From the IMG/VR virus record IMGVR_UViG_3300006899_000574: a stretch of DNA of 64,000 nt. One strand, given 5' to 3'. The first letter of the stretch is position 1. Each line of letters opens with the position of its first letter. Positions 2,337-58,516 of this stretch are shown piece after piece. Below the pieces are notes generated by a model. The model saw nothing but the letters and a program-made list of their open reading frames with translations. It did no database searches and was not told the DNA's origin. The translations under genes and the position numbers were made by a program. Origin of the DNA: a virus. Its lineage: Duplodnaviria; Heunggongvirae; Uroviricota; Caudoviricetes.

Positions 2337-2923
2337 TCGTCGCCCTCGTATGTGTGATGGTCATGAGTTGTGATGATCCGTGTCGCCATGACTTTTACTA
2401 CGTGCTCCAGATTCACGGGATACAGACTGTGGCAGTCAACGCCGACGTCCATGACCTTGCGCAGGTAGTAGTCACCTTTCAGCGTGCCATGGCTGTGTCC
2501 GTGGAGACAGATGGCGCCACGATGATGCTTGTTCCACACCAGCATCGGAAAATGACAGACCTCAAACTCATGGCCCAGGGCTTTGAACCACATGAGATTC
2601 TCATTTCGCTGGAACAGCTTCCTGTAGCCGCGCTTGCGGTCGTGATTGCCCGTCACGAGAATCTTCTGGCCCTTCAGCCTCTTGAAGATTTCCTTACTGC
2701 GTTCTTCGTTGTGAAAGCTGAAGTCACCGACGTGATACACGGTGTCACGCTCTCCGACGCAGGAGTTGTAGCGGCCAATGATGTCGTCGTCATGTGCCGC
2801 AAGCGCCTGGCGGAGTTCATCTTCTCCCCAGGTATCGCCGGGTTCCAGGGCACGGAGATAGCCACGCAGGACCGCCATCTTCTTGTGGCCGAAGTGCTGA
2901 TCAGAAGTTGCCCAGATATTCAT
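2333..2923 (-). CDS. calcineurin-like metallophosphoesterase
   Basis: SDQHFGH (DxHxG), VTGNHDR (GNHD) and HGHSHG (GHxH) motifs. Confidence 0.7.
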   Translation of the reverse strand: MNIWATSDQHFGHKKMAVLRGYLRALEPGDTWGEDELRQALAAHDDDIIGRYNSCVGERDTVYHVGDFSFHNEERSKEIFKRLKGQKILVTGNHDRKRGYRKLFQRNENLMWFKALGHEFEVCHFPMLVWNKHHRGAICLHGHSHGTLKGDYYLRKVMDVGVDCHSLYPVNLEHVVKVMATRIITTHDHHTYEGDE

Positions 2924-2968
2924 ACTGCGGAAATCTCTCCTATCGAAATCAGCCCGGCGCCGATGCGT

Positions 2969-3226
2969 TCAGACCTGACACAGCCTGTGCGGGGGAAACT
3001 GCATGAAGAATACATACCGCCAGACGCCGCAGAGTTCGTCAAGTCTATGTCCACGATCTAACAAAAATCTTCTGCACATCTCTACTACTAGAGGCTCTTC
3101 CAGCGGCTCCAGTAGAAGGCTCCCATCGTGGCCGATAGTAGATTTGGGGGTGAAGTAACGGAACTGCCGCACGACCTGCGATTCCGGGAAGCAGAAATAC
3201 GTGTATTCTGACAAGGGCGTGATCAT
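2969..3226 (-). CDS. hypothetical protein (start at internal MITPL, ATGA overlap)
   Basis: ORF; coupling geometry with the upstream gene. Confidence 0.3.
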   Translation of the reverse strand: MITPLSEYTYFCFPESQVVRQFRYFTPKSTIGHDGSLLLEPLEEPLVVEMCRRFLLDRGHRLDELCGVWRYVFFMQFPPHRLCQV

Positions 3227-5009: not shown

Positions 5010-5226
5010 TTATCTCTCCTGTTGTCAAAATACTCAGTGCTTGCTGTGCGTCGCCGTCAGACGCAAACCACGCCTGTAGGATGTCGATCTCCGGTCTCCC
5101 GGTCTGCTCCTTGAGTCTGTGGATACTTGCGTTGGCGCGGTTGACGGCCTCGTGATAAGCATTGCGCTGGTCCTCTGCAACGCGACGTCGAAGCCAGTGT
5201 TCGGCTTGTTCGTAGATATCAGTCAT
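4996..5226 (-). CDS. hypothetical protein
   Basis: 76-aa ORF. Confidence 0.3.
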   Translation of the reverse strand: MTDIYEQAEHWLRRRVAEDQRNAYHEAVNRANASIHRLKEQTGRPEIDILQAWFASDGDAQQALSILTTGEINGTD

Positions 5227-5492
5227 GACTCGCGCTGGGTTCCAGCGTCAGCGCAATCCTGGTGCGTACGGAATTTTGCCACACCCAGGCATACCATTGC
5301 CCGTTCTCCAGCCAGATGATCTTCTGGACCCCCGGCTGATCCCAGGCCGCCCTTACGGAATCCGGAAGTGATACGCGGTGTCCACATCCGCCGCAAAACT
5401 GCGTAGCCCCGCTCCTGCCAGACCAGCGAGAGCTTCTCGTAGGTCTCAAGTCTGGCTTCTTGTTGTTGAATAAAGAACGGTGAAAGGCTCAT
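5223..5492 (-). CDS. hypothetical protein (start at MSLSPFF, ATGA overlap with the ThyX stop)
   Basis: ORF plus coupling. Confidence 0.35.
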   Translation of the reverse strand: MSLSPFFIQQQEARLETYEKLSLVWQERGYAVLRRMWTPRITSGFRKGGLGSAGGPEDHLAGERAMVCLGVAKFRTHQDCADAGTQRES

Positions 5493-46848: not shown

Positions 46849-47101
46849 CTCGACTGAGATTTTTGGCCGCGAAATAGGCCAGCAGAATGGCGGGTTGTCG
46901 GAATAACGGATTGCTGGAGTGACGGATTACGACTTTGTCCCAAATCCACGAGTGATCTGCGCTGAACATCTGAAGTTGATCTGCGGTCGTGAGTCCAGAG
47001 ACAAACTCCAGAAGCAAGTCATTGAGCACGTTGGGGTCCGCCGGTAGAGCGGACATTTTTCCGTATAGCTTTGATAGAAAATCCATCATCTCGACCTTCA
47101 T
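46763..47101 (-). CDS. hypothetical protein
   Basis: 112 aa. Confidence 0.4.
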   Translation of the reverse strand: MKVEMMDFLSKLYGKMSALPADPNVLNDLLLEFVSGLTTADQLQMFSADHSWIWDKVVIRHSSNPLFRQPAILLAYFAAKNLSRDDFRDLWPLSEAEYQIIFSDLGISTAHL

Positions 47102-47355
47102 TTACGGATCTCCTCTGCCACGCCCATTGCTATCAATTTCTCTGCAAGAGTTCGCGTGAAATAAAACTCCACTCCAGCCGCAACCAGCTTCCTACCTGAT
47201 TCTCCCAGGATGCCGGTCAGAAATATCGCTTCCGGGTCGGTAATGCGTATCCGCAGGGGGTCGCGAACTACTGCACGGCGGGAAAGTTCTTCGGGGACCA
47301 CCATGAAATCGAGTTCTATCATTTCTCCAGATCCTTGCGCCAGCATCAAAGTCAT
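47098..47355 (-). CDS. hypothetical protein
   Basis: 85 aa. Confidence 0.4.
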   Translation of the reverse strand: MTLMLAQGSGEMIELDFMVVPEELSRRAVVRDPLRIRITDPEAIFLTGILGESGRKLVAAGVEFYFTRTLAEKLIAMGVAEEIRK

Positions 47356-47525
47356 TTACGGGCCTCCCACCTTCTCATCGTAACCGGAACCCCTGAAGCC
47401 GGGCATCCCTTGGTGCAACACTTGACAGTCTCATCCCAGGTGTCCCAGCGGTAAGGTCGTTTACCGCAGAACGGACACAGTTTTGCATTCAGCACTCGAT
47501 CATTCTTGTCTGTTTGGATCTTCAT
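47352..47525 (-). CDS. small zinc-ribbon protein (57 aa, below the ORF-track cut-off)
   Basis: Hand translation MKIQTDKNDRVLNAKLCPFCGKRPYRWDTWDETVKCCTKGCPASG... Confidence 0.3.
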   Translation of the reverse strand: MKIQTDKNDRVLNAKLCPFCGKRPYRWDTWDETVKCCTKGCPASGVPVTMRRWEARK

Positions 47526-48513
47526 ACAGTCCTCCTACTGGGATAAATTCCACAACCCAGACCCACGGGTTTGATTCCCATGATGCGCGATCTTTGTTGA
47601 TTGAATCCCACAGCGCACGAAAGGCTCCGGTAGCTGTCGCATACCCATGCGGTGCGCCGCCAGCAAATCCATAAGCCAGACCGTCCTGCCACGGCCAGGA
47701 CACCAGACCTTCAGCTAATGCATCTTTTTCGCTGATGTCCTGCAAGCGCTCCATTCTTACGTCAGTGATTTCTAACGTTATGCGGGATGCCCAGCGAGGC
47801 GAACAATCTATTCTATTATCGAAAGGAATCCATGTCTCATTCTTCAGTATGCGGGCTATCGTCTTGGGTGATAGATTATATTCTTTCGAGAGAGTCCATG
47901 CGCTTTTACCGGACACCCGCATTTCTTCAGCCTTTTGCATGGTGCATTTAGCATTATGATGGTCTTCATGGATTCCTCGCCCATGGGCTTTTCTGTCCAA
48001 CCAATTGCTTTCGTAATTACCCCAGTCAAGGTTTTCCGGGGCGTTGTCCAGCCTGTCCCCACTCAGATGGCGAACGCATGGCTTAACTATTGACTTTGGT
48101 GCTGGTCCATACCATGCCTCACATACAACAACATGGACACTTACGTTTACGTCTGCGCCACCTTTTCGAAGAGTAGTTCGCTCATACCCAGAGTTCGAGA
48201 TATGTGATTTTATTGGTTTCCAAATGCCTGTAGATTGCGACCACAATCGTCCTTTAATATCTGCCGCATACTTAGCATCGTAACCGGTTAAGACCATCGC
48301 TGGGATCAGACGATCGCCTTGCTGGCCGTAAGGGCAGACGATGCGTGAGCCCAGACCGTGATTAAACCTGTCTACCTCGTCATTGAAATAGCCATCATCT
48401 GCGATCCGCCGCGTCTGCGTCTTGCGTCCTTCGAGAATTGCGCGGACCATCGGCCCGGAGAATAAGATTGGTCGTTCCTTCATTTCGAAGGATGCTCCTT
48501 CGCACGGACACAA
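47500..48513 (-). CDS. ASCH-domain protein interrupted by an in-frame HNH endonuclease domain
   Basis: N-terminus ILFSGPMVRAILEGRKTQTRR and C-terminus ITLEITDVRMERLQDISEKDALAEG...VWVVEF form an ASCH fold; the central VHVVVCEAWYG...VRHLSGDRLDNAPENL is an HNH_3-type nuclease. Confidence 0.55.
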   Translation of the reverse strand: MCPCEGASFEMKERPILFSGPMVRAILEGRKTQTRRIADDGYFNDEVDRFNHGLGSRIVCPYGQQGDRLIPAMVLTGYDAKYAADIKGRLWSQSTGIWKPIKSHISNSGYERTTLRKGGADVNVSVHVVVCEAWYGPAPKSIVKPCVRHLSGDRLDNAPENLDWGNYESNWLDRKAHGRGIHEDHHNAKCTMQKAEEMRVSGKSAWTLSKEYNLSPKTIARILKNETWIPFDNRIDCSPRWASRITLEITDVRMERLQDISEKDALAEGLVSWPWQDGLAYGFAGGAPHGYATATGAFRALWDSINKDRASWESNPWVWVVEFIPVGGLYEDPNRQE

Positions 48514-48683
48514 TCTATCCCTGTCTCAGTCATCAACTTCCAAAATGCCGCGTCTATAGCTTGATCTTGAGTCCAATTGTTGTCCCGCATGATCTGCTCT
48601 TTCAACATCCACGACACTTCAGCACGAAGCCTGCGAGACCACTCCACAAACTCTTGCTTCTCAAACGCAACATACTGTTTCAT
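48480..48683 (-). CDS. hypothetical small protein
   Basis: 67 aa. Confidence 0.3.
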   Translation of the reverse strand: MKQYVAFEKQEFVEWSRRLRAEVSWMLKEQIMRDNNWTQDQAIDAAFWKLMTETGIDCVRAKEHPSK

Positions 48684-49023
48684 TTCGGGTTCTCTCTCTC
48701 TTCATCATCGTGGAAAAGGCCTCTGCGAATCTCTGGTCTCTGATATTCCGCGCATCTCTCAGAGATGCCTCGATGTCGTAGTGTGCAACCCGCTTCCTGC
48801 TTTTCTGTAGCGTATAGCCGTGGCTCGCCATGAACCAGAGAAAGCAGTCTACGGTGTAGATATGCGCGTCTACCCAGGTGACAGCGTTGATCGAGGTCTC
48901 CGAGGCTTCACTTTTATACGCTTCATGTATCGTCTTGAACAAATCCTTCTGGTCGTGGAAGTCCCGCATGAATTTTGGCAGATACTCTCCGCTCTGCCTC
49001 CAGGCTTTATTGTCGTTGCTCAT
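48661..49023 (-). CDS. hypothetical protein
   Basis: 120 aa. Confidence 0.4.
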   Translation of the reverse strand: MSNDNKAWRQSGEYLPKFMRDFHDQKDLFKTIHEAYKSEASETSINAVTWVDAHIYTVDCFLWFMASHGYTLQKSRKRVAHYDIEASLRDARNIRDQRFAEAFSTMMKRERTRNETVCCV

Positions 49024-49454: not shown

Positions 49455-49922
49455 CTACTCGTTGTCCCGGACTGAGGAAGCCCGGTCGATGTAGAGCACG
49501 CCATCGAGATGGTCGATTTCGTGCTGGATCACGGTGGCATCCCAACCCGTCAGTGTTTCACGGCGGTGCTCCCCCAGAACATCGTAGTACATGAGGTCTA
49601 CGGTCTCCCGCCGCCTCACCCAGCCGTGCTTGCCGGGAACCGATAGGCAGGCTTCCCAGTTTCCCATCAGCTCGCCGCTGATTTGCGTGACCACGGGATT
49701 GACGTAGACATATGCCTTGTCCGCTCGAACGACAACCACAACACGCAGGAGTACGCCGATCTGCGGCGCCGCGAGACCAATGCCGCCGGCGTTTCGCATG
49801 ACTGTAATCATGTGGGTCGCCAGGCGCATGAGCGGCGCACCGAACCAGGGCCGCGCTACCTCTACGGCCTGTCGTCTGAGAGTCGGATGCTCAGAACTCA
49901 GGATGATGTTACTGTAAGTCAT
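49455..49922 (-). CDS. def: peptide deformylase
   Basis: GIGLAAPQIG, EACLSVPG and HEIDHLDG motifs; start taken at MTYSNIIL. Confidence 0.8.
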   Translation of the reverse strand: MTYSNIILSSEHPTLRRQAVEVARPWFGAPLMRLATHMITVMRNAGGIGLAAPQIGVLLRVVVVVRADKAYVYVNPVVTQISGELMGNWEACLSVPGKHGWVRRRETVDLMYYDVLGEHRRETLTGWDATVIQHEIDHLDGVLYIDRASSVRDNE

Positions 49923-53417: not shown

Positions 53418-53773
53418 TGGGCAACCTCCAACGGAGAGCTGTCGCGCGATGCCGTCCCCATTTGCTCCAGCAACCATGCTTTCTGCAAAATCAGGTAGCA
53501 CAGTGCGTCTCCAAATTTTTCATCGATCACCGCAGGCGTGGCTGGCGTAACTCCTGTAGTGATGTCGTAAATGGATGTCCAGTGCTTGCGCGCCATACCC
53601 ATGAGAGCTTGACCCGGGGAATCGTCTGAGCCCATGGGGAACTGCTTATGAGCATTCTTGAAATTGTGCAAGACATCTCGATCTGTCGCGTATTCCCCGC
53701 GCTTAGCGCGCATGGTTGTATTGATTAGATTCAGAGTGTTGTCCAGTATCGCATTGAACTCGTCTACCTTCAT
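53414..53773 (-). CDS. hypothetical protein
   Basis: 119 aa. Confidence 0.4.
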   Translation of the reverse strand: MKVDEFNAILDNTLNLINTTMRAKRGEYATDRDVLHNFKNAHKQFPMGSDDSPGQALMGMARKHWTSIYDITTGVTPATPAVIDEKFGDALCYLILQKAWLLEQMGTASRDSSPLEVAQ

Positions 53774-54543
53774 GCTTTTGCCCTCCCCGGTTTGTCTAAG
53801 ATTTCCATGACCTTCTGCGTCTCGTGTTGAAGAGACCTGACGTCGTCCTCAAACAACAAGGGCAGACAATGTCTGTCCAGCAACGCAAAAATCCCCCGAG
53901 ACCACGCCCTGGATTTCTCCAGCTCAACGTTGGAGAGGAAAATCGTTCGGCGACCGTTGGAAAGACGACTTCGCAACATCCTGTCCCAGGCCGCAATCAT
54001 TTTACTTCGGTTCTGATATAAAAACGACTTGGTTTCATCAAAGACTTCGTCGATGATCAGCAGGTCCACCAGCTCTGCCGCACGCAGATCCTGCTTGAGA
54101 TCCTGTGCTTCATATGAGAAGCTCTCATGGAAGAGGAGCGCGAGGTCTCCGGCCAGCACGTAGCGCACACTCAGGCTGGCTTTCAGAAACCCCCGGCCGA
54201 TAGCGCATGCCACGCTGGTCTTCCCGCTGTTATTTGGCCCCCAGAGATACAGGGATTTCTTCTGTACTGCGGGGTCGTGCAGATGGCGGATGTAGTTCAT
54301 GGCCCGCAGGAAGCTCTGCTTCGACTTCACAAAATTCTTACGGATGTCTACAAATTCCAGATTGTGATACTCGCGCGGGATGCCGCTCTTCTCTAAGAGA
54401 GATTTGTAGAATTGCTTTGGGGGATTGAAGTTCGGGTTCCGCGCGGAGTAGGTCTCGCCAGTGGCGGGATCAATTTCGTAGATGTAGGGCTCATCAGATT
54501 TTGTCCGGGATGCTGTAGTCATATTTGATTCTCGCGAGTGCAA
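53770..54543 (-). CDS. DnaC/IstB-like AAA+ helicase-loader ATPase
   Basis: Walker A LWGPNNSGKTS, Walker B LLIIDEV. Confidence 0.55.
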   Translation of the reverse strand: MHSRESNMTTASRTKSDEPYIYEIDPATGETYSARNPNFNPPKQFYKSLLEKSGIPREYHNLEFVDIRKNFVKSKQSFLRAMNYIRHLHDPAVQKKSLYLWGPNNSGKTSVACAIGRGFLKASLSVRYVLAGDLALLFHESFSYEAQDLKQDLRAAELVDLLIIDEVFDETKSFLYQNRSKMIAAWDRMLRSRLSNGRRTIFLSNVELEKSRAWSRGIFALLDRHCLPLLFEDDVRSLQHETQKVMEILDKPGRAKA

Positions 54544-54925
54544 AGTTCATACGTTCAGGACTGATCTCGTTCTTCCCTCTGGCCAGGCTGGCTTCAGGAA
54601 CCGGGATCTCCTTGCCGTTGATGGTAATAGTACTGGCCGGCAGGTAAACACATTTCCAGTCGTTGCTTAAGGAGTTGACTGTCGCACGGTTCACCGGCGC
54701 ATTCTGCTGGCGAAGAACCCAGGACACATACATGAACCAGATGTTGCGCTGAATGTCCTCTATTTCTTCCGTGCGCTTGGATAACTTTACCTCGAAGCTC
54801 AACAGCCCTGGCTCATCGACCAGCTTCATGATGTCGGCAATCGTGTCCTCGGTCAGGAACGCGAGATCCAGAATCAGCCGCTGTTTCTCCAGATCAAATT
54901 CACGTCCTGCGGCATGAATCTTCAT
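54494..54925 (-). CDS. hypothetical protein
   Basis: 143 aa. Confidence 0.4.
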   Translation of the reverse strand: MKIHAAGREFDLEKQRLILDLAFLTEDTIADIMKLVDEPGLLSFEVKLSKRTEEIEDIQRNIWFMYVSWVLRQQNAPVNRATVNSLSNDWKCVYLPASTITINGKEIPVPEASLARGKNEISPERMNFALARIKYDYSIPDKI

Positions 54926-55554
54926 CTCTCTTCTGCCGCCTTGATGAAAGTTGAATTGAGCAGGATAAAATCTCTTCGTTCGCGCTCATCCTGAATCTTC
55001 CGCACGGCCTTGAGAAACATGATCACGGGTTGATGTGCGATGCGGATCTCTTGCCTGTCGTCATCTCCAGTGAAACTGCGAGCCAGCAGGAACTTATCAT
55101 TCATCCAGATGAACATAATACGGCCGGTCTCAATTCGTGGCACCTCACGCTTTTGATTGAAGATATCTTCAGCGTGGATCTCCCCCGAGCGCACCATCTC
55201 GGCAAGTTCGGCGGCATCCAGCAGAACAGCAACTGTTTCTCCAGTGTCTACACGATAATGCGGGAACCGGTCCTCAAACGCCGATGTGAGTTTCTGGTGT
55301 ATGTCCTCAGGAGCCGGATTGTCTTGCAGATTGATGTCGTACGTATAGGGGCCTACATTGCACCGGATCACTCGATTGCTGTTGTCATAGGTGGTTACCA
55401 GTGGAACCGGGAAGCCGCTGACACATCGCTTGACTTCGTGCGCCACGCTTTGCAGGTAGTCGCGATCCAGTCCGCGCCTGGAGTTGAGGTATGCCTCATC
55501 CGATAGCCAGGAGTTTTTCGGCGGCGTTTCTTCTGGTTTGCCGTGTCGTGTCAT
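54922..55554 (-). CDS. hypothetical protein
   Basis: 210 aa. Confidence 0.45.
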   Translation of the reverse strand: MTRHGKPEETPPKNSWLSDEAYLNSRRGLDRDYLQSVAHEVKRCVSGFPVPLVTTYDNSNRVIRCNVGPYTYDINLQDNPAPEDIHQKLTSAFEDRFPHYRVDTGETVAVLLDAAELAEMVRSGEIHAEDIFNQKREVPRIETGRIMFIWMNDKFLLARSFTGDDDRQEIRIAHQPVIMFLKAVRKIQDERERRDFILLNSTFIKAAEER

Positions 55555-56648
55555 TTGCGGAACCCCATCACGAAATAAAAATTCTCATCATCTCGATGTA
55601 TCCGTGTGGCATGAATGTGGTGCCCGGGATCACGAAGATGGAATACGATGTTTCCACTCCCTTTCTTCAGGGCGCCTAACGCTCGTTTAAGATACAGGCC
55701 CGGAATTGCTCTATCGAAACCAGTCAGCGCGTCGAGATCCCCGCTGGCCTGTAACTGCTCGGACGCGAATGATTTCGAGCTTCGATGCTCCAGTGCTACA
55801 CCTTCCGGCCTGATCGTCAGAAACAGCTGGTGGTCCATGCTTTTGTCTGCGGCCACCAGCAAGCGCGTAAGTGCAGTGACAGTGCTGTCGTATGAGAGAC
55901 ACAGTCTGGATGGATGATCGAATATCTGTCTGCGCTCGTCAGCCGGCGTGTTCTGAATCGCAAGAGTTTGCCGAAGTGGAAACCAGAATTCCATCCCTTC
56001 GGCACTGAAGTTTTGTATCACGGTGTCTGCGGCTCGCAGGTAGTTCACCGTCACGGACTCCGTGAGTCCCAGAGCCGCCAGGGTCTTGATAATCTCCACG
56101 CCGTATAATACGGGTTGCGCCACCTTGTGCCCGGTATGTTGCCTGACTACAGCCAGTGTGCGGCTGTCGCTGGCAATAGCGGTTTCGTCGCAGAACAGCG
56201 CGACACCGGCATAGCCATGCGTTTTTCCGGTAAACGGTAACAGGTCTGCAAGGCTCTTCACGTCGGCCAGATGGTCGGTCTGGAACGGCACCAGAGTCTC
56301 CAGAACATCACATAACGACTTCTCGGGGTAGCGCATCTTGAAAGCCGGCATGCTGTAAGTGGCTCCGGAGAACTTCAGATCGCGCACCCCCAGCGTCACC
56401 AGCTCCTGGTGCGCATCAGTCAGTCGGCTCAAGGAAGCCAGGGTGGCTACCGGATAGATGGCTTCGAACGGCGTAGCGGTCTCATGCGGCGCGGTGTAGC
56501 GCACGATCGCCGCCGCAGACAGCAGTTGAATTTGCAATTGCTGTTCGGTTACTCGAACACGGATACGATTGTGATGAGCCTGTAGCTGATCCGCCAGGCG
56601 CGACATCACAGCTACCACTCGTGCCAGAACTTCTGCTCGGATTTTCAT
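55551..56648 (-). CDS. hypothetical protein immediately downstream of the SbcC-like gene (not Mre11-like; clamp-sized)
   Basis: 365 aa; no DxH/GNHE phosphoesterase motifs. Confidence 0.45.
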   Translation of the reverse strand: MKIRAEVLARVVAVMSRLADQLQAHHNRIRVRVTEQQLQIQLLSAAAIVRYTAPHETATPFEAIYPVATLASLSRLTDAHQELVTLGVRDLKFSGATYSMPAFKMRYPEKSLCDVLETLVPFQTDHLADVKSLADLLPFTGKTHGYAGVALFCDETAIASDSRTLAVVRQHTGHKVAQPVLYGVEIIKTLAALGLTESVTVNYLRAADTVIQNFSAEGMEFWFPLRQTLAIQNTPADERRQIFDHPSRLCLSYDSTVTALTRLLVAADKSMDHQLFLTIRPEGVALEHRSSKSFASEQLQASGDLDALTGFDRAIPGLYLKRALGALKKGSGNIVFHLRDPGHHIHATRIHRDDENFYFVMGFRK

Positions 56649-58516
56649 TCCACAACCTCCCCGTTGCGTAACTCCACAACATGGGCCCCAAAGTCGGAGA
56701 CCAGCATGTCAACGGTGTCCTGCCGATGCGTCACAATGATCCACTGCTTGACGCCTGGAGCGAAAGCCACCGCATTGGCGAACAGTCTGGCACTGTTGCT
56801 TTCAGTCGTGCTGGCGTCAACTTCATCAAGAATGATGAATTCCGACCCCTGCAATGCGCAGAGCGCGAGCCGGAACGCCATGGAAAGGATCTGTCGGTAG
56901 GCGCCGCCCAGCAAAACAGCTGGCGTGAACTGGCCGTCTCCACTGCTGAAGAAGAACTCCACGCTCTTATGGTCGCGCTTGATGCTCACGCGATGGTCGC
57001 TAAACCTCGCGAAGAACTCATTCATACGTTTCTCCACGAATGCCAGGCCAGACTCCAGCAGGTAGGCACTGAACTCTTTCTCCAGCAGGCCACGGGATTT
57101 TTCCGCCACTGTCTGGGCCTGAGTGAGTTCCTCCAGTTCCGCAGTCTTCAGCGTGATATCTGCGGCATTCCGCAGGCGCTGTTTCTCTTGCGCGAGGTTG
57201 AAGTCCAGTGCGGCTCTTACCTCGCGTTCGAAATCCCGATAGGCACGGGCACGCGCTTCCAGTTTACGATAGCCTTCGATATCAAATTCCGGCGGCGGGG
57301 GATAGGATAGAGGCTCCTGAGTTGGAGCACCTCCGGGGTCGGGAAGCGCTTGTAATTCCTTGCGCAGTTTCTCCAGCTCAACCTGTGCTTGTTGAATCAC
57401 GGCCCGCACCTGCTGATTCTTAACGTACGCCGCGCGCAGGGTCTTGATCTCCGCACTCAGAACTTTCACCCTGGGTTGCAACACCTGGAGTTCCGAGCGA
57501 AGCTCCTCAACCTGCTTTTGCAACGGCAGGGGATCGCCGATGTAGTCCTGCGCGCACTGCGAGCATTTTCCGGAGGCGATGAGCTTGAGCTTCGTTTCAC
57601 ATGAAACGATCTCTGACTGGATCTGCTGTATGCGCAAGGTGGCTGTGCGTTCTTCTGTTTCCAGAGGCTGGACATCCGCTATCGCAACCAGCTTGACTTT
57701 CTCCGACGCCAGCAGGGAAGCCTTCGATGCCACGGCGTCCTGGGCTTTTTTGTAAGCACGGCACTGACTGTCGTGCGCCTGCCTGGCTTTCTCAAACTCC
57801 TGTCGCTTCTGGTCTACGGCCGCAATGGCCTTTACGTGTTCTTCTCTGAGTTTCAGATACTCTTCGTAGGCCTTCTGCGCTTCCTGAAAGCGATCGATCA
57901 CCTGTGGGTCTTCCCGGGACTCCGGGATCTGCATGTCGTCAAACCGCATGGCCTGAAGGGTCTTCAGGACCGCCCGGGCTTCGGACGCATTGTCTTTGCA
58001 GGTCTTGGCACGGGCCTTCAGGAGTTCAACTGCCTTGCTTACGGTGTCCATCCCCAGTACGGACTTCAACCGCTGAAGACGTGGCGCGGCGTCATCAAAG
58101 ATGACGGATGTCGTGCGATGCTGGAGCGCAATGCTTCCGTACAGTGCGAGGTCTGTATCCATCAAGGTACCGAGAATCTCATTCACTGCTGTGGCGCCTT
58201 CGGCCAGCAACTCTCCGTTGCGCGAAAGAGTTTTTTTGGTGCGCTCAACACCGGCCTGGAGGTACAGCGCGTAGTCAGCTCCGTCTTCGACGAAATCTGT
58301 CTCTATCTCGTAGGTTTTTGCTCCACTGCTGTCATTGACGAAATCCGCCAGATTGGACTCGGCGTAGCCAGTGACAGCCAGGGTGAGCCCCTCAATGGAG
58401 GAAGTTTTCCCGCTGTTGTTGTCCCCGCGCAAGACGTTCACGCCTGGCCGGAGGAGGATGTTTACCTCCCCCGGAATGCGTTTGAATCTCCGCAGACTCA
58501 GGCGACGGAAGATCAC
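56645..58516 (-). CDS. Rad50/SbcC-like ABC ATPase with zinc hook
   Basis: N-terminal Walker A GDNNSGKTS; central coiled coil with GKCSQCAQ (CxxC hook); C-terminal signature and Walker B FIILDEVD. Confidence 0.7.
   Translation of the reverse strand: MIFRRLSLRRFKRIPGEVNILLRPGVNVLRGDNNSGKTSSIEGLTLAVTGYAESNLADFVNDSSGAKTYEIETDFVEDGADYALYLQAGVERTKKTLSRNGELLAEGATAVNEILGTLMDTDLALYGSIALQHRTTSVIFDDAAPRLQRLKSVLGMDTVSKAVELLKARAKTCKDNASEARAVLKTLQAMRFDDMQIPESREDPQVIDRFQEAQKAYEEYLKLREEHVKAIAAVDQKRQEFEKARQAHDSQCRAYKKAQDAVASKASLLASEKVKLVAIADVQPLETEERTATLRIQQIQSEIVSCETKLKLIASGKCSQCAQDYIGDPLPLQKQVEELRSELQVLQPRVKVLSAEIKTLRAAYVKNQQVRAVIQQAQVELEKLRKELQALPDPGGAPTQEPLSYPPPPEFDIEGYRKLEARARAYRDFEREVRAALDFNLAQEKQRLRNAADITLKTAELEELTQAQTVAEKSRGLLEKEFSAYLLESGLAFVEKRMNEFFARFSDHRVSIKRDHKSVEFFFSSGDGQFTPAVLLGGAYRQILSMAFRLALCALQGSEFIILDEVDASTTESNSARLFANAVAFAPGVKQWIIVTHRQDTVDMLVSDFGAHVVELRNGEVVE

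Follow-up and report, generated by a model that had tools for sequence, protein, structure and literature searches.

An HNH endonuclease cassette in place of the variable middle of a phage gene with a predicted ASCH fold

Within a 64,000-nucleotide stretch of Caudoviricetes DNA (IMG/VR record IMGVR_UViG_3300006899_000574; the whole stretch is hereafter called the window), one minus-strand gene encodes a protein whose two ends belong to a phage family of predicted ASCH fold and whose middle is an HNH endonuclease. We consider it likely that this chimeric gene is a phage ASCH-fold (YqfB-like) gene whose variable middle has been replaced by an in-frame, I-HmuI-like homing endonuclease, that the product stays unspliced, and that the cassette spreads by nuclease-driven homing. 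An earlier note on this DNA had described an HNH_3-type domain inserted in frame in an ASCH-domain gene, and had offered either an unrecognised HNH intein or a domain-insertion route of endonuclease mobility as the explanation.

A tblastn search of the chimeric protein against 50,697 phage records recovered relatives in 268 of them, and nearly all of these are genes of 190–240 amino acids that align to the two ends of the query only. Such uninterrupted homologues, by which the earlier note proposed to map the insertion, include F116p07, Mx8 p14, the P1-like PmgT, and genes of many Pseudomonas phages and prophages. The PHROGs profile match of the window protein was to phrog_874 (unknown function), in two separate stretches at its N and C ends. 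The full chimeric architecture was present in 1 of the 268 records, that of the cultured Aeromonas phage ST4 (40% identity). In all it was found in ~77 clusters at 90% identity (among at least 8000 scored clusters) and ~65 representatives at 50% identity (among 1.84 billion), with Serratia and Acidovorax genomes among them. Because the same layout recurs in this many clusters and representatives, the nested ASCH/HNH architecture is, on sequence comparison, far beyond chance.

Alignment to the uninterrupted proteins places the left junction of the foreign segment right after GDRL and the right junction right before PRWASRI. Between these anchors, uninterrupted proteins have the strand WVRE, which is invariant, and 45–75 amino acids of variable sequence, and the window protein lacks both. 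As judged from these alignments, the window cassette replaces the variable middle of the host (WVRE included) rather than being a plain insertion. The in-frame insertion described in the earlier note was therefore right as to the continuous frame and the location inside the ASCH gene; it was not a pure insertion, and the boundaries given for it (47749–48261) lie ~15 codons off the aligned junctions at each end (Table 1). The best uninterrupted relative (P0065/L004) shares 68% identity with the flanks of the window protein overall, 75% in the C part, and ~74% DNA identity with the window gene, while the flanks of the window protein reach at most 61% identity to any other chimeric protein. No DNA nearly identical to positions 47000–49000 was found in the phage or E. 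coli collections, and no close empty-site genome for the window phage was among them.

Two annotations in the family deserve a remark. The uninterrupted P1-type PmgT homologue of Escherichia phage vB_EcoM-813R1 (L013 2417–3145) is annotated as '3'-phosphatase, 5'-polynucleotide kinase', a name that found no support here. In Burkholderia phage Magia, an adjacent 'HNH endonuclease' overlaps an uninterrupted ASCH gene; this candidate was set aside, being of an unrelated HNH type.

The two flanks are predicted to form one ASCH beta-barrel domain, complete as in the uninterrupted relatives, in an AlphaFold2 model that was built on the alignment of 71 chimeric homologues (predicted local distance difference test, pLDDT, 88.7; predicted template modelling score, pTM, 0.78). 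The suggestion of the earlier note that the N- and C-termini make up a single ASCH domain is borne out by this model, in which the junction-spanning strand RLIPAMV also lies within the ASCH sheet. Membership of the ASCH group rests on fold and not on a sequence profile, since the window protein had no match to Pfam ASCH (PF04266) at E ≤ 1, uninterrupted homologues score 17.1 and 19.8 bits (below the gathering cut-off of 21.2), and neither a profile built from uninterrupted homologues nor the flank-only sequence matched any PDB entry in sequence searches. In E. coli YqfB, an N4-acetylcytidine (ac4C) amidohydrolase, Lys21, Thr24, Arg26, and Glu74 are essential by mutagenesis (PMC6972931). A provisional BLASTP alignment to the YqfB sequence pairs these residues with K21, T24, R26, and E258 of the window protein, which are conserved in 70, 71, 69, and 71 of the 71 chimeric proteins, respectively. 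The phage phrog_874/PmgT-like family differs from YqfB in being twice as long, its middle being variable and its C-terminus extended by a helix region, and in falling below the Pfam ASCH threshold; its ASCH fold is a predicted one, and any amidohydrolase activity putative.

The embedded segment has the hallmarks of a homing endonuclease of the I-HmuI type. Pfam HNH_3 (PF13392) matches residues 116–155 (E = 4.6e-7; 29.8 bits against a cut-off of 24.8) and the HNH family phrog_59 spans residues 66–251, with HNH PHROG families matching to E = 6e-31; together with the split phrog_874 match, this upholds the earlier recognition of an HNH_3-type domain between two ASCH parts. In phmmer, the insert aligns from its residue 6 onward to I-HmuI from residue 6 onward, including the catalytic motif (VDHKDGN...N in I-HmuI). 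It also shares 27–35% identity, over ~90% of its length, with free-standing phage HNH homing endonucleases of 150–170 amino acids. The layout is likewise that of I-HmuI, with an N-terminal beta-sheet, the HNH core, and a helical, helix-turn-helix (HTH) tail; residues 182–213 gave weak GerE/HTH matches, and HTH_psq was matched in ST4 and other homologues. Catalytic residues H139, N151, and N160 are present in all 71 chimeric proteins and N147 in 66 of them. A homing endonuclease model was the sole PADLOC match. We regard the insert as a whole homing endonuclease of the free-standing type, for which site-specific cleavage is predicted from homology. The HNH is evidently under strong purifying selection in the reading frame of the host, because the inserts of the pair P0035/P0041 differ at a proportion of only 0.068 of nonsynonymous sites (pN) against 0.85 of synonymous sites (pS). 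Elsewhere in the window, neither another copy of the nuclease nor a free-standing relative was detected.

In Mx8, the uninterrupted p14 is followed directly by a homologous free-standing HNH gene, p15, an arrangement that is a plausible precursor of the nested state. The free-standing HNH of Mx8 (L003 2564–3219) itself seems to be split, with its beta-sheet part (MKPCPSFPGYSVTEDGRVIS...) at 2564–2773 in another frame than the annotated p15 (2830–3219), which could reflect a frameshifted or decaying homing endonuclease gene or a sequencing error.

An HNH-containing intein excised by protein splicing would likewise appear as a sporadic insertion that keeps the frame of a conserved gene, and such inteins occur in phages (bioRxiv 10.1101/2025.01.02.630785). 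This first option of the earlier note has to be given up. Hint/intein families had no match in Pfam or NCBIfam at E ≤ 1, and the endonuclease fold takes up all 169 amino acids of the insert, where a Hint domain would need ~130 more. The residues at the junctions are wrong as well: among the 71 chimeric proteins the first insert position (60) is V in 27, I in 26, L in 5, C in 4, and F in 4; positions 227–228 are N (43) or H (18) and then M (49); and the +1 residue is Pro in 61. The intein pattern of Cys/Ser ... His-Asn followed by Cys/Ser/Thr was not found at these junctions, and the junction positions themselves vary among the classes (A–E) described below. Taken together, these sequence features effectively refute the intein alternative, which we reject.

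It is also very unlikely that the insert is a group I or group II intron whose HNH open reading frame (ORF) shares, by coincidence, the frame of both exons. Phage group I introns often carry an HNH ORF, and I-HmuI itself is encoded in such an intron. Nonetheless, an Rfam 15 covariance scan (E ≤ 1) of positions 47000–49000 on both strands returned no match, and the endonuclease coding sequence runs from junction to junction, leaving no space for a ribozyme core. More than 70 relatives, diverged to 35–50% identity, have a coding frame that crosses both junctions unbroken, with purifying selection on the translation, and the RLIPAMV strand that crosses the junction is predicted within the ASCH sheet.

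Mobility emerges from comparing the history of the insert with that of its flanks. Inserts that are 99–100% identical sit between flanks of only 56–71% identity in the pairs P0027/P0030, P0039/P0048, P0047/P0062, P0057/P0061, and P0024/P0040. Across 2926 chimeric pairs the identities of insert and distal flank are hardly correlated (r = 0.16), and distal flanks are only 51–78% identical in the 19 pairs whose inserts share at least 95% identity. The identical block always reaches slightly into the host, from CP(Y/F)G..GDRL to PRWASRITLE, as expected for co-conversion tracts. At the DNA level, L007 and L008 share a ~570-nucleotide block of 99.3% identity between divergent flanks, with its edges in the CPFG and ITLEI coding DNA; in L011/L012, pS is 0 across the N flank and insert and 0.5–0.9 from GDRLWVRE downstream. 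The G+C content of the insert is 46.0%, compared with 53–56% in the flanks and 53.8% in the whole window.

A filled and an empty allele could be compared directly in Serratia. The prophage L008 (filled) and p46 of phage BZS1 (empty) share 92–97% identity as far as ...GGCGATCGGCT and, on the other side, from ACATGCCGCG... onward, and between these points BZS1 has ~145 nucleotides of host middle where L008 has a cassette of ~505 nucleotides, which fixes both breakpoints to the base. A search of genome contigs for empty-site prophages, made with the gene next upstream of the chimeric one in Serratia, gave 6 loci, none with an ASCH gene. On these comparisons, the cassette has a history independent of the host gene, with recombination boundaries in two conserved anchor motifs, and is mobile between diverged copies of the ASCH gene. 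The earlier idea of a domain-insertion route gains from this independence, with homing driven by the endonuclease as its probable mechanism. We also observed a reverse mosaic in P0035/P0041 (L009/L010), whose C flanks differ little (pS 0.08, no amino-acid change) and whose inserts have pS 0.85 and 89% protein identity; two long-diverged cassette alleles thus occupy one host backbone. Both pairs that were used for the ratio of nonsynonymous to synonymous change (dN/dS) in the flanks within the chimeric state turned out to be mosaic.

At least five junction classes (A–E) were distinguished, none more than ~15 codons away from CPYGxPGDRLWVRE, which is the longest stretch of near-invariant residues in the family. 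In class A, which includes the window gene, ST4, and the Serratia prophages, GDRL is followed by the junction and then by xPAM...NMPRW, whereas in class B the junction lies after GDRLWV and before xTxKxIP.... Class C reads GDRLWVRH, junction, ...AFKMW, junction, RPSIHMPRW. In class D the order is CPYG, junction, IPPPL...NMPRY, junction, QRPPGDRLWVRE, with the entire host middle kept, and in class E the HNH immediately precedes LWVRE, with CPYG..GD missing. Classes D and E show that insertion proper, without loss of host sequence, also happens. The alignments as a whole point to several independent colonisations of one spot in at least five configurations.

A few chimeric proteins depart from these layouts. 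P0181 and P0184 (237–251 amino acids) combine an intact HNH cassette with short, degenerate ASCH flanks that lack GRKTQTRR and LAEG, as if the host gene had decayed after invasion. P0160 (548 amino acids), of class C, has after the HTH ~300 unrelated, partly hydrophobic amino acids in place of the ASCH C flank, and this oddity may stem from a frameshift, from misassembly, or from further rearrangement.

We propose the following course of events. The variable middle of the host, flanked by strand beta3 (CPYGxPGDRL...) and by that of PRWASRITLE, would have been swapped for a whole HNH gene in the same frame, and the chimeric protein would be produced unspliced with an active I-HmuI-like nuclease. 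This nuclease would nick or cut cassette-free alleles at or near the conserved GDRLWVRE coding DNA, which is disrupted in its own allele; cleavage of the empty allele would then fall near the boundary between GGCGATCGGCT and GTGGGTGCGTGAG. Repair from the occupied allele, anchored in the CPYG..GDRL and MPRWASRITLE coding DNA, would copy the cassette in and in the same act drop the heterologous middle of the recipient. The ASCH domain would tolerate the cassette because it sits in a naturally variable surface excursion outside the core. With K21, T24, R26, and E258 in at least 97% of chimeric proteins, the host gene would stay at least partly functional, and the element would therefore need neither intron nor intein.

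Several points weigh against this proposal and call for caution. Cleavage, target site, and the unspliced state of the chimeric protein are predictions, made from sequence. Mosaic recombination at conserved motifs could shift the cassette without a nuclease. Junction types A and B, the window gene included, lose WVRE, which is invariant in uninterrupted members, and ASCH function may therefore be impaired. The degenerate flanks of P0181 and P0184 show that the host part can decay, and frequent homing into intact alleles would keep flanks conserved-looking, so that the conservation of the K/T/R/E residues is no proof of function; their alignment with YqfB is, moreover, provisional. Lastly, I-HmuI is elongated on DNA with its termini far apart, yet the cassette is tethered at both ends. 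Whether host ASCH activity is kept after invasion is, on these sequences, uncertain.

If it is not kept, the host gene might be dead, the endonuclease having captured the ASCH promoter, ribosome-binding site, and start codon, with flanks that are remnants and look conserved because the invasion was recent. The loss of WVRE in the junction class of the window gene, the decayed-flank variants P0181 and P0184, the many invasions that are evidently recent (inserts 99–100% identical), and the dispensability of the family in many phages would all fit this. We nonetheless find it improbable, considering that all 71 aligned chimeric proteins keep the C-terminal flank in frame and at full length, and that the four YqfB-type residues are retained as counted above despite inserts diverged to 35–50% identity. 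A stop just after the HTH would be free for the nuclease and was seen in none of the full-length matches, and the ASCH fold is predicted to be no less complete than that of uninterrupted proteins.

A further explanation is that of a domesticated two-domain enzyme, in which ASCH acts as the sensor of a modified base or of an RNA/DNA feature and the nested HNH as its effector, for instance as a modification-dependent nuclease or a phage-versus-phage weapon; the cassette pattern would then come from ordinary mosaicism. A PUA-superfamily sensor combined with an HNH is an established architecture of modification-dependent restriction (PMC7897488), key residues of both ASCH and HNH are conserved in the chimeric proteins, and the pTM of 0.78 suggests a defined two-domain arrangement. 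However, the insert amounts to an entire homing-type endonuclease that brings along beta-sheet and HTH modules for DNA binding, and its movement is independent of the sensor. The junctions take at least five geometries, including some in which different host segments are kept or deleted, which is hard to square with one co-adapted enzyme. The arrangement is also rare in the family (1/268 phage records; ~77 of at least 8000 scored clusters), PADLOC matched no defence system apart from 'homing endonuclease', and known PUA-HNH enzymes are tandem and not nested. We therefore judge a domesticated enzyme to be unlikely.

Replacement of the variable middle by a homing cassette, the reading that we prefer, can be carried a step further. 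Homing endonucleases may have a third intragenic route, as an in-frame domain nested in a variable loop of a still-functional host ('domain homing'), with the ASCH/PmgT-like gene as a hotspot that was colonised in at least five ways by nucleases targeting its most conserved coding motif. Our confidence in this wider proposal is evenly divided.

Full-text literature searches turned up no account of an ASCH gene that has an HNH inside it. I-HmuI and the free-standing or intron-encoded HNH_3 enzymes are separate polypeptides, in introns or between genes, whereas the ASCH cassette lacks a separate start or stop and is covalently continuous with the host domain at both ends. In Aeh1, nrdA is split by mobE; in general, free-standing homing endonuclease genes either occupy intergenic positions or split a gene so that it yields two polypeptides, while the ASCH ORF stays single and continuous. 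What the free-standing genes (T4-type mobE/seg 'intronless homing') would have in common with the cassette is gene conversion with co-conversion of flanks and a nuclease gene at the boundary of genetic exchange (PMC2790892, PMC10448857). The PUA-superfamily/HNH restriction enzymes (e.g., EVE-HNH VcaM4I) have tandem domains, another HNH subtype, a context of cellular defence, and no cassette mobility; the ASCH/HNH gene is nested and lies within a phage early-gene block.

The nearest precedent is the ShiLan domain, found in DNA methylase genes of actinophages; it has a hidden HNH and was described as an 'actively homing insertion element' (Arsenault, Gosselin & Gogarten 2025, PMC11855218). Both elements are stop-free and in frame with a phage host gene, lack intein and intron features, have a sporadic distribution that points to active mobility, and form a predicted excursion that may spare host function. 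They differ in that the HNH of ShiLan is out of frame, its route of translation being an open problem, whereas the HNH of the ASCH cassette is in the frame of the host and requires no separate initiation. The ASCH case is further set apart by a host that is not a methylase, by several junction classes, and by the replacement of a host segment.

The coordinates of the chimeric gene and its parts are collected in Table 1. The ORF listed at 47500–48513 in the earlier note exists on the minus strand; its TTG opening is the part that we revise. Because AAGGAG precedes the ATG at 48481–48483, this ATG overlaps the stop of an upstream 67-amino-acid ORF as ATGA, and the resulting N-terminus (MKERPILFSG...) is common to every homologue and to an independent Joint Genome Institute (JGI) gene call on identical contigs, the ATG is almost certainly the true start as judged from sequence. 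A protein identical to the window product (P0001) was called on 3 JGI contigs. An internal ATG (M63, 48295–48297, minus strand) lies four codons inside the cassette, with no obvious Shine-Dalgarno before it. The M of the xPAM motif is found in 22 of the 71 aligned chimeric proteins, mostly of junction class A, and P0122 (248 amino acids) begins exactly at the M63 position. M63 may be the vestigial start of an ancestral free-standing endonuclease, or an alternative internal start for a product of HNH and C flank.

Table 1 Positions in the window of the chimeric gene and its parts.
Feature	Position	Strand	Description or basis
Chimeric ORF, 327 amino acids plus stop (TGA 47500-47502)	47500..48483	minus	order: ASCH N-part, HNH cassette, ASCH C-part
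Shine-Dalgarno AAGGAG	48495-48500	minus	11 nucleotides 5' of ATG 48481-48483; read directly from sequence
ASCH N-terminal segment, residues 1-59	48307..48483	minus	alignments; GRKTQTRR motif and conserved left anchor CPYGxxGDRL
GRKTQTRR residues	K21 48421-48423; T24 48412-48414; R26 48406-48408	minus	align to YqfB K21/T24/R26
Mobile cassette, residues 60-228 (169 amino acids)	47800..48306	minus	complete I-HmuI-like HNH homing endonuclease, in frame with host gene
Endonuclease N-terminal beta-sheet region, residues 60-115 (IPAMVLTGYDAKYAADIKGRLWS...)	48139..48306	minus	I-HmuI alignment and modelled strands
HNH catalytic core, residues 116-166	47986..48138	minus	Pfam HNH_3
HNH core residues	H139 48067-48069; N147 48043-48045; N151 48031-48033; N160 48004-48006	minus	align to I-HmuI catalytic motif
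Endonuclease C-terminal three-helix (HTH-like) DNA-binding region (predicted), residues 182-213	47845..47940	minus	helices 182-191, 195-202, 206-213 in AlphaFold2 model
ASCH C-terminal segment, residues 229-327	47503..47799	minus	right anchor PRWASRITLE, then VRMERLQDISEKDALAEG (D254; E258 47710-47712), NPWVWVVEF

With regard to the neighbouring genes, a peptide deformylase gene (49455–49922, minus strand; Pfam Pep_deformylase, E = 2e-42; phrog_2890) lies ~1 kb upstream in the same gene block of the viral contig (roughly 73–75 kb) and looks like an auxiliary metabolic gene. Further upstream (L005 1–4714, approximately 53770–58483 of the window), an SMC_N/AAA_23 protein of 623 amino acids and an IstB_IS21-like (DnaC-type) ATPase are encoded, which fits an early/replication region. 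A 57-amino-acid ORF (47352–47525, minus strand), whose product has cysteines in the pattern CPFCG...CC..GC, shares 26 nucleotides with the 3' end of the chimeric gene; it had no Pfam or PHROG match, and JGI called it on one contig and not on a shorter, identical one. At the Serratia prophage locus L008, the second ORF downstream of the chimeric gene is a Lar_restr_allev (Zn-ribbon) gene (5156–5368). Most other neighbour genes in the block of the window had no family match.

The textbook view is that homing endonuclease genes persist inside genes only if an intron or intein removes them, and otherwise sit between genes. In the case described here, the nuclease appears to be translated as part of the host protein and is evidently still spreading among diverged alleles. 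If the host ASCH is active, splicing would be no prerequisite for intragenic residence, and the chimeric gene would be a plausible intermediate toward nested-domain nucleases. The finding complements the 2025 ShiLan report, with the problem of translating an out-of-frame HNH absent here. It also supplies naturally occurring cases of a small beta-barrel enzyme with a site that permits insertion, along with a set of related nucleases that presumably have a defined, conserved DNA motif as their target. Pairs of filled and empty alleles (Serratia prophage vs. phage BZS1) make homing directly testable. NCBI names the chimeric proteins only 'HNH endonuclease', and entries with this name alone would conceal an ASCH enzyme.

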